Source of the DNA: Gammaproteobacteria bacterium | Lineage (GTDB): Bacteria; Pseudomonadota; Gammaproteobacteria; CBDDKY01 | DNA: 64,000 nt | Reading direction: 5' to 3' | Assembly: GCA_965230455.1 (NCBI GenBank) | Contig: CBDDKY010000003.1 | Span: forward strand, 196,039 to 260,038 | Shown: one piece after another, positions 19,473 to 19,853 of the stretch | Layout: each line of letters starts with the position of its first letter | Position numbering within the stretch: the stretch's first letter is position 1 | Notes under the pieces: generated by a model | Told to the model about the DNA's origin: nothing | Seen by the model: only the letters and a program-made list of their open reading frames with translations | The model's database searches: none | Translations under genes and position numbers: made by a program

Positions 19473-19853
19473 ATGTCATCAATTGATCTAAAAAAGAAAC
19501 AAATGTTTACTTTATGTGCTGTCTTGGTTAGAATTGCTTTCTCTTTACTCACTTATGGAGCCCGCATGGCTTTTAGCCCTCGAACAAACTGCTCTCCCAG
19601 ACAACGCGCCCTCACAACCACAGTTGGTATTTTCTTATGTGCGGCTGGCGCTGCAGCATTTGGCTTTGATGTTAAGCTTTTGCTGAGTGAAAATCCCGAG
19701 GAATGGCTATCAAGCATTGTGTCCCTTGGAATGATCGGCTTTGCTAGCTTAGGTACTGGTGCTGGGTTAGTGAGCTGCGGCACCTGCTGTGATGTCCCCG
19801 AGGACCCCGCGGATATTTCAGAAGAAGAGAGAACGCCTTTACTCGCACTATGA
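19473..19853 (+). CDS. Small membrane protein with a Cys cluster and C-terminal acidic dileucine motif; candidate effector; ORF track start is 19359
   Basis: 2-3 hydrophobic segments, then SCGTCC and EEERTPLLAL-stop. Confidence 0.65.
   Translation: MSSIDLKKKQMFTLCAVLVRIAFSLLTYGARMAFSPRTNCSPRQRALTTTVGIFLCAAGAAAFGFDVKLLLSENPEEWLSSIVSLGMIGFASLGTGAGLVSCGTCCDVPEDPADISEEERTPLLAL

Follow-up and report, generated by a model that had tools for sequence, protein, structure and literature searches.

An orphan membrane protein with an acidic C-terminal tail as a tentative candidate Dot/Icm transmembrane effector in a deep gammaproteobacterial lineage

An orphan gene, found in a 64,000-nucleotide stretch of a gammaproteobacterial genome (GenBank assembly GCA_965230455.1, contig CBDDKY010000003.1, positions 196,039 to 260,038 of the forward strand; hereafter the window), encodes a predicted membrane protein of 164 residues, the last 20 of which, DVPEDPADISEEERTPLLAL, resemble at the same time an export signal for Dot/Icm (type IVB) secretion and an acidic dileucine sorting signal of eukaryotic hosts. 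Judged from its sequence, the protein is put forward here as a candidate Dot/Icm transmembrane effector, the explanation that we favour, albeit tentatively and with less than even confidence. The case rests on the convergence of an orphan gene, a genome that encodes Dot/Icm, moderate hydrophobicity and a textbook tail, with no single significant statistic among them; that the protein is secreted, enters a host membrane and has some function there is inferred. The tail would recruit the protein to the DotL/DotM coupling complex, export might proceed either directly or via an inner-membrane intermediate, and the exported protein would then insert into a membrane of the (protist) host, for instance that of the bacterium-containing vacuole. 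Once there with its tail in the cytosol, its cysteine cluster SCGTCC and its ExxPLL motif could serve host palmitoyl-transferases and adaptor protein (AP) complexes, even though nothing in the favoured explanation requires that they do.

The features of the gene on which the argument turns are the following (window coordinates; residues in 164-residue numbering throughout).

19359..19853, plus strand: orphan gene, 164 amino acids; other in-frame starts at 19473 (127 amino acids, the choice of a preliminary description of this DNA) and 19503
19503..19772, plus strand: three-helix membrane core of moderate hydrophobicity, predicted from the Kyte-Doolittle profile, Hessa sums and an AlphaFold2 (AF2) model
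19773..19790, plus strand: cysteine cluster S-C-G-T-C-C, residues 139-144 of the translation, directly after helix 3
19791..19850, plus strand: acidic C-terminal tail with the putative E-block EDPADISEEE (-17 to -8) and the overlapping ExxPLL match (E157-L162)

Architecture, tail and relatives of the orphan protein

The preliminary description had reported hydrophobic helices, the SCGTCC cluster, an acidic linker and the terminal EEERTPLLAL, all of which are indeed present in the translation, the helices numbering three. The Kyte-Doolittle profile delineates hydrophobic segments at residues ~49-67, 85-103 and 115-138, and the AF2 model, computed from the single sequence and of low confidence (predicted local distance difference test score, pLDDT, 57.6), places helices at 32-71, 80-108 and 113-141, followed by a floppy tail. 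The Hessa sums of the three segments amount to +1.8, +1.2 and +2.2 kcal/mol when calculated crudely, in a simplified and position-independent manner, and by the same measure 363 proteins of the genome possess a segment below 0. The loops span 13-17 residues; loop 1 is Arg-rich with four basic residues (+4), and loop 2 is short and acidic. Such moderate helix hydrophobicity combined with short loops agrees with the profile of transmembrane effectors of type IV secretion systems (PMC12981334). Helix 1 is flanked by positive charges on both sides, which leaves its assignment ambiguous. Three spans would put the ends of the protein on opposite faces of the membrane, and a two-span hairpin, formed by helices 2 and 3, would leave the tail cytosolic; the tail is predicted, from the loop charges only, to face the cytosol. 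A signal peptide or a lipoprotein is unlikely, as inspection by eye revealed neither a lipobox nor a clean AxA site.

What kind of signal, then, does the tail carry? The E-block defined by Huang et al. consists of 3-6 acidic residues per 6-10-residue span within the last 30 residues, its first acidic residue lying mostly 11-18 residues from the end (PMC3096851). At the extreme C-terminus of the signal acidic residues are depleted and hydrophobic ones preferred, and its Glu-rich stretch is bound by DotM (PMC12981334); the same 2026 review, citing Malmsheimer et al. 2024, further gives the E-block as the signal that predominates among the transmembrane effectors of Legionella, 65% of which carry it. 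In the orphan protein the 27 residues that form the tail include seven acidic residues and one basic residue. Six of the ten positions of EDPADISEEE are acidic, whereas the last seven residues, RTPLLAL, are free of acids and carry leucines at -1, -3 and -4. In its sequence the tail agrees with these published descriptions of the E-block and of the terminal residues. It also contains E157-R-T-P-L-L, a match to [DE]xxxL[LI] of the ExxPLL type, which lies 20 residues after helix 3 and two residues from the C-terminus. Tails of the ExxPLL type occur in tyrosinase-type melanosomal and lysosomal proteins. On the present reading a Dot/Icm export signal nevertheless appears to describe the tail no less well than a signal for sorting to host lysosomes does, and a simpler account of these residues would be an acidic E-block plus the hydrophobic end that is preferred by the secretion machine.

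How exceptional is such a tail in this genome? In our own set of putative genes, which was assembled from open reading frames (ORFs) and hexamer scores rather than taken from curated annotation and which underlies all the proteome statistics given here, an acidic block of at least six in ten within -25..-7 is found in four of 2174 proteins, the orphan included, with one other protein reaching seven; among proteins with hydrophobic segments the orphan ranks second. Of all C-terminal blocks in the genome, the most acidic belongs to a 207-residue protein (C2:610868-611491) with one N-terminal hydrophobic segment and an effector-like tail, SDSDDEYDDDNEYDGQD...GLR. The preliminary description had suggested scanning the proteome for ExxPLL tails, and among 2797 putative proteins the only one with this motif in its last 10 residues is the orphan itself (1 versus 0.43 expected), while the broader [DE]xxxL[LI] occurs there 31 times (27.6 expected), so that no excess is seen. 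The combination of features in this one protein is unusual, yet it was picked after the fact.

The cysteines are likewise open to more than one interpretation. Cys140, Cys143 and Cys144 directly follow helix 3, a placement that suits the geometry of palmitoylation sites, and a C..CC or CC..C pattern is found in only seven proteins genome-wide. However, palmitoylation proceeds without a consensus sequence (PMC4951486), and the placement is for this reason weak evidence of the modification. The claim that EEERTPLLAL acts as an AP-binding lysosomal signal and SCGTCC as a palmitoylation site comes down to a pattern match, in tails that occur at chance frequency.

Relatives of the protein were sought widely. 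None was retrieved by a word-index search of 5.8 billion proteins, by an exhaustive phmmer search of 1.84 billion representative proteins or by scans of genome and metagenome contigs; a six-frame search of 60 genomes of the same class returned only noise matches (E = 0.003 and 0.009, internal stop codons), and Pfam, NCBIfam, PHROGs, PADLOC and the PDB sequences offered nothing better than E = 0.029, a match of the PADLOC RT_I-B model over the N-terminus that was judged to be noise. By the measure of these searches the protein is a strict, lineage-specific orphan. Its lineage is itself remote: the relatives of its genome among the genomes searched belong to the same class at best, and the nearest homologues of its housekeeping proteins are only ~50% identical. 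Several other identities were considered along the way. A phage holin or small toxin was rejected for want of a PHROG match and of any phage context, and also because its tail is not basic but acidic. MerT and MerF are small membrane proteins with paired cysteines, but a mercury or metal transporter of this type was not recovered, there being no Pfam or NCBIfam match whatsoever. Recent transfer from a eukaryote is unlikely, considering that there is no homologue and that the G+C content at third codon positions (GC3) is native.

The Dot/Icm genes and known effectors

The genome (2.76 Mb in five contigs, 42% GC) encodes many parts of a Dot/Icm system. DotM/IcmP, for which the cut-off is 230 bits, reaches 430 bits, IcmW, IcmV and IcmT are likewise past their cut-offs, and IcmL/DotI and IcmS score 209 and 71.5 bits; DotB, DotC, DotD, IcmQ, IcmE/DotG and IcmK/DotH were detected as well, together with an IcmM-like gene, an intact DotA frame of 846 amino acids and a 784-residue type IV coupling protein (T4CP, DotL-like) whose gene adjoins dotM. 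Matches resembling IcmG/DotF and IcmX remain under their cut-offs. A search for DotM in 61 genomes found it in 17, the present one included. In Legionella and Coxiella it is IcmS, IcmW and DotM that recruit protein substrates (PMC12981334); with these substrate-recruiting parts encoded, a host-directed secreted protein is therefore realistic in this organism.

The Dot/Icm genes are dispersed over at least four loci (C2:364091-368690; C3:41205-44716; C3:178943-184326; C4:39467-44498), with the contents dotBCD-icmTS-icmQ, dotML, icmGEKLM and dotA-icmV/icmWX, and the breaks between them carry insertion sequences and a YhgA-like transposase. The icmGEKLM block lies 12-17 kb upstream of the window. 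Directly after icmQ, in the position of icmP/icmO in Legionella, there is a gene for a 229-residue DnaJ (J)-domain protein (C2:368979-369668, equivalent to L007:4979-5668), possibly a J-domain effector or a chaperone partner. Two paralogous TraD-type coupling proteins of 640 residues (C3:1201096-1203018 and C4:16879-18801; 793 bits to each other) stand in similar gene strings, which points to an integrative conjugative element present in duplicate, apart from Dot/Icm.

Set beside the E-block transmembrane effectors of Legionella pneumophila and Coxiella burnetii, the orphan shares with them a genome that encodes a DotL-like protein, DotM, IcmS and IcmW (PMC12981334; PMC3096851), as well as few and moderately hydrophobic helices, short loops, a Glu/Asp block within the last 25 residues and an acid-free, hydrophobic end. 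It departs from the known Dot/Icm effectors in having no sequence similarity to them and three predicted helices instead of one or two, and its translocation is something that we infer here. Its tail has 27 residues, whereas more than 60% of the known transmembrane effectors have tails of more than 70 (PMC12981334), and, unlike the Legionella and Coxiella sources of effectors, its organism represents a deep, unsampled lineage.

For the host-sorting side of the tail there are precedents of several kinds. C. burnetii CvpA is a Dot/Icm effector whose dileucine endocytic motifs bind AP2 (cited in PMC9182567). CvpA is similar to the orphan in being a protein of a Dot/Icm organism with an acidic dileucine of the host-sorting type, and different in that it has three motifs (EESKLL, RHINLL, EIQQLL), whereas the orphan, a small integral membrane protein without homology to it, has one near its C-terminus. 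Salmonella SteD, a small transmembrane type III effector of Salmonella pathogenicity island 2 (SPI-2) that is trafficked by AP1 (PMC9182567), is an integral-membrane effector that behaves like transmembrane cargo of the host by virtue of a short signal, made of leucines and acidic residues, in its cytosolic tail; SteD differs in its type III delivery, its two helices and its inverted signal, LLPPSER, in the N-terminal tail, with no homology between the two. Among host proteins, mucolipin-1 (TRPML1) is palmitoylated at Cys565-567 and binds AP-2 through EEHSLL (PMC5297682), so that here, too, a membrane-side cysteine cluster precedes an acidic dileucine within the cytosolic tail. The two proteins are not homologous, the distance from the last Cys to the Glu is 5 residues in mucolipin-1 and 12 in the orphan, and the likeness amounts to a six-residue pattern plus cysteines. 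Finally, the Legionella effectors GobX and LpdA are brought to host membranes by host S-palmitoylation of their cysteines (PMC4951486). Whereas these proteins reportedly reach the membrane by means of the palmitate itself, the cysteines of the orphan follow a predicted transmembrane helix, and their acylation is putative.

Coding evidence and the flanking mobile elements

The frame at 19473..19853 (plus strand) is open from the ATG at 19473 to the TGA at 19851-19853 and yields the peptide MSSIDLKKKQMFTLCAV...GLVSCGTCCDVPEDPADISEEERTPLLAL*; an upstream ATG at 19359 in the same open frame extends it to 164 residues. A dicodon (hexamer) model, for which 600 long ORFs of the genome served as training set and held-out genes as test set, gives the ORF a score of 0.295, which corresponds to the 4th percentile of equally long pieces of real genes and is matched by none of 3000 out-of-frame or antisense pieces; the remaining five frames of the same DNA score between -0.4 and -1.5. 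The 38 codons ahead of 19473 score 0.414 (24th percentile of real genes, a value reached by 0.13% of non-coding frames), and because these extra codons behave like coding sequence the longer form starting at 19359 is favoured. Codons 39-101 score near 0. GC3 of the gene is 39.6%, compared with a native 38.4%. Taken together, the ORF looks coding, as would be expected of a real gene. A promoter scan found nothing beyond shuffle expectation, and no strong Shine-Dalgarno sequence was found either.

The gene is flanked by two housekeeping genes on the minus strand, ubiE and a gene for a MidA-like methyltransferase, with UPF0149 also nearby. No protein in the related genomes exceeds ~52% identity to the MidA-like protein, and ubiE never adjoins the MidA-like gene in 42 related loci, an evolutionary distance too great to judge whether the orphan gene was inserted between conserved neighbours. 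When the 943-bp intergenic region was compared with the genome by BLAST, the ORF proved to fill nearly all of its unique DNA (~500 bp). Two very abundant repeats, miniature inverted-repeat transposable elements (MITEs), enclose it at a distance of 13 bp from the ATG and 0 bp from the stop, and leave its frame intact.

19164-19340, no strand assigned: complete MITE 'A', 177 bp, with terminal inverted repeats CCTAAAATCCTCAGTTGAAATC (22 bp); 19159..19345 with target sites
19850..20062 including the target site, no strand assigned: truncated MITE 'B', element from 19855, cut at ~20062; intact copies measure ~315-320 bp

MITE A is bordered by a 5-bp target-site duplication, ATAAT (19159-19163 and 19341-19345), the outer end of which lies 13 bp before the ATG at 19359. 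In the 2.76-Mb genome there are 189 full-length copies, every one of them with matching 5-bp flanks, besides several hundred partial matches; the target duplications of the family are AT-rich and 5 bp long. Twelve copies of MITE B, aligned with their flanks, always start with CCTAAAATC. The five bases that precede this start are not the same in all copies, and each intact copy shows its own five again at the opposite end (e.g. ATAAT, ATTAT, TTTAA, TTAAA, TTGAT; consensus ~WTNAW); they therefore represent a target-site duplication. In the local copy they read ATGAT (19850-19854) and include the TGA of the gene. Could insertion of the repeat have created the C-terminus, and with it the supposed signal? 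This was considered and rejected: the element starts at 19855 and the TGA lies inside the target site, so the ...PLLAL C-terminus is native. That two insertions spared the edges of the frame is as expected around a gene kept by selection.

Some further observations concern the repeats themselves. The local MITE B contains a 7-bp tandem duplication (ATGTCTG ATGTCTG, 20040-20053) and breaks off 6 bp short of where the MidA-like gene has its stop (20069), its truncation at this point indicating that a deletion removed its right third plus sequence beyond. MITE A shares a terminal core with the longer, ~315-320-bp family (B), and both families are therefore probably mobilised by the same transposase. 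An ORF of 118 amino acids on the minus strand (19744-20100), which overlaps the tail of the gene and lies mostly within MITE B, is a repeat-borne spurious frame, and its peptide (…MPLAHRSGSPLLVMETFFVFLDESRCYRQKRDL…) recurs at further MITE copies, e.g. C3:163336 and C3:188950. Elsewhere in the window, an ORF of 534 amino acids (14602-16206, plus strand) lies upstream of an EamA transporter gene and has no Pfam match at E <= 0.01.

Weighing the explanations

Several results weigh against a Dot/Icm effector and should be considered together. With multi-copy ORFs removed and true C-termini compared with internal pseudo-termini, acidic blocks of at least three residues number 410 versus 367±15 (z ~2.8), which is a weak excess, those of at least five 24 versus 16.6±3.6 (z ~2.0), and those of at least six 4 versus 2.0±1.4 (z ~1.4); a block combined with an acid-free end and a hydrophobic last residue, which is the full pattern, is seen 41 times versus 34.6±4.9. 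Such weak C-terminal enrichment implies that chance could yield one or two tails of this kind in a genome. Moreover, one of the three other top acidic tails ends, by eye, like DnaK and would, if so, belong to no effector. Three predicted helices would place the two ends on opposite faces, unlike the usual N-in/C-in layout of two-helix effectors, and the tail is shorter than in most transmembrane effectors. Upstream of the gene no regulatory site of the PmrA or CpxR type was evident by eye. Finally, the Dot/Icm inventory covers the parts named above, to which IcmB/DotO and several others do not belong, and the system may not be complete or active.

It is quite conceivable, and this is the main rival, that the protein is a resident inner-membrane orphan with a housekeeping or niche role that is never secreted, its tail and cysteine cluster lying in the bacterial cytoplasm, where they might for example bind a metal or a partner, and its likeness to both signals being coincidental. 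Short linear motifs of this kind do occur at chance frequency in the proteome, under the positive-inside rule the tail and the Arg-rich loop 1 come out as cytoplasmic, as they would in an ordinary membrane protein, the neighbours ubiE, UPF0149 and the MidA-like methyltransferase are housekeeping genes, and GC3 (39.6% versus 38.4%) is native. Less easily reconciled with a resident protein are helices that are less hydrophobic than the typical inner-membrane anchors of this genome, a total lack of relatives of the sort that is typical of Dot/Icm effector repertoires, a tail that ranks among the four most acidic (-25..-7) of 2174, and the failure of Pfam and NCBIfam, MerT and MerF included, to supply a match. 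A non-functional frame, that is, a chance or decaying ORF left between two mobile-element insertions, is improbable: what speaks for it are the lack of homologues, of a strong Shine-Dalgarno sequence and of a promoter, together with a coding score at the 4th percentile of real genes that falls near 0 over codons 39-101, but none of the 3000 samples from non-coding frames equals this score, an ORF of 164 codons spanning a 500-bp unique segment is very unlikely to arise by chance, both MITEs sit at its edges and none inside, and the architecture is that of a coherent membrane protein.

Of the effector that mimics a host protein, as proposed in the preliminary description, the effector part finds real support in the encoded Dot/Icm system, the orphan status, the moderately hydrophobic helices and the tail that fits an export signal, whereas the part concerning AP adaptors and palmitoylation finds none beyond a pattern match. 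In its full form, a delivered effector whose ExxPLL motif binds AP-1, AP-2 or AP-3 and whose SCGTCC is palmitoylated, so that it mimics an endolysosomal membrane protein, is an unlikely proposition. It can draw on an exact ExxPLL-type match to [DE]xxxL[LI] in a tail predicted to be cytosolic, on the mucolipin-1 parallel of a cysteine cluster followed by an acidic dileucine (PMC5297682), on the bacterial precedents CvpA and SteD (PMC9182567) and GobX and LpdA (PMC4951486), and on the encoded Dot/Icm system. Yet it presupposes secretion, which would itself have to hold; the tails are not enriched (31 versus 27.6; 1 versus 0.43), the secretion signal already accounts for the same residues, the motif lies two residues from the C-terminus in a protein whose topology is uncertain with three helices, and without homologues the conservation of LL and Cys cannot be compared. 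A variant that grants the tail both roles seems slighter still: the same 20 residues would serve as the DotM/IcmSW export signal in the bacterium and afterwards as an ExxPLL motif read by AP adaptors in the host, where SCGTCC, palmitoylated by host enzymes, would keep the tail near the bilayer while the adaptors route the protein to a lysosome-like vacuole.

What would each outcome mean? An orphan candidate Dot/Icm effector with a short eukaryote-like motif is of a kind already known, the member itself being new, if real. Should the protein not be exported, it would be a plain orphan membrane protein that illustrates how easily chance can give a bacterial tail a short linear motif of eukaryotic type. 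Should the tail indeed perform both jobs, evolution may partly have shaped the E-block tails of Dot/Icm membrane effectors into ready-made signals for acidic-dileucine sorting. If, as tentatively favoured here, the protein is exported, it would represent an unrelated transmembrane effector of very small size, contributed by a Dot/Icm-encoding lineage that is deep and unsampled, and would offer a compact test case for the way in which type IVB systems handle hydrophobic substrates and for an acidic export signal that doubles as a host sorting signal.

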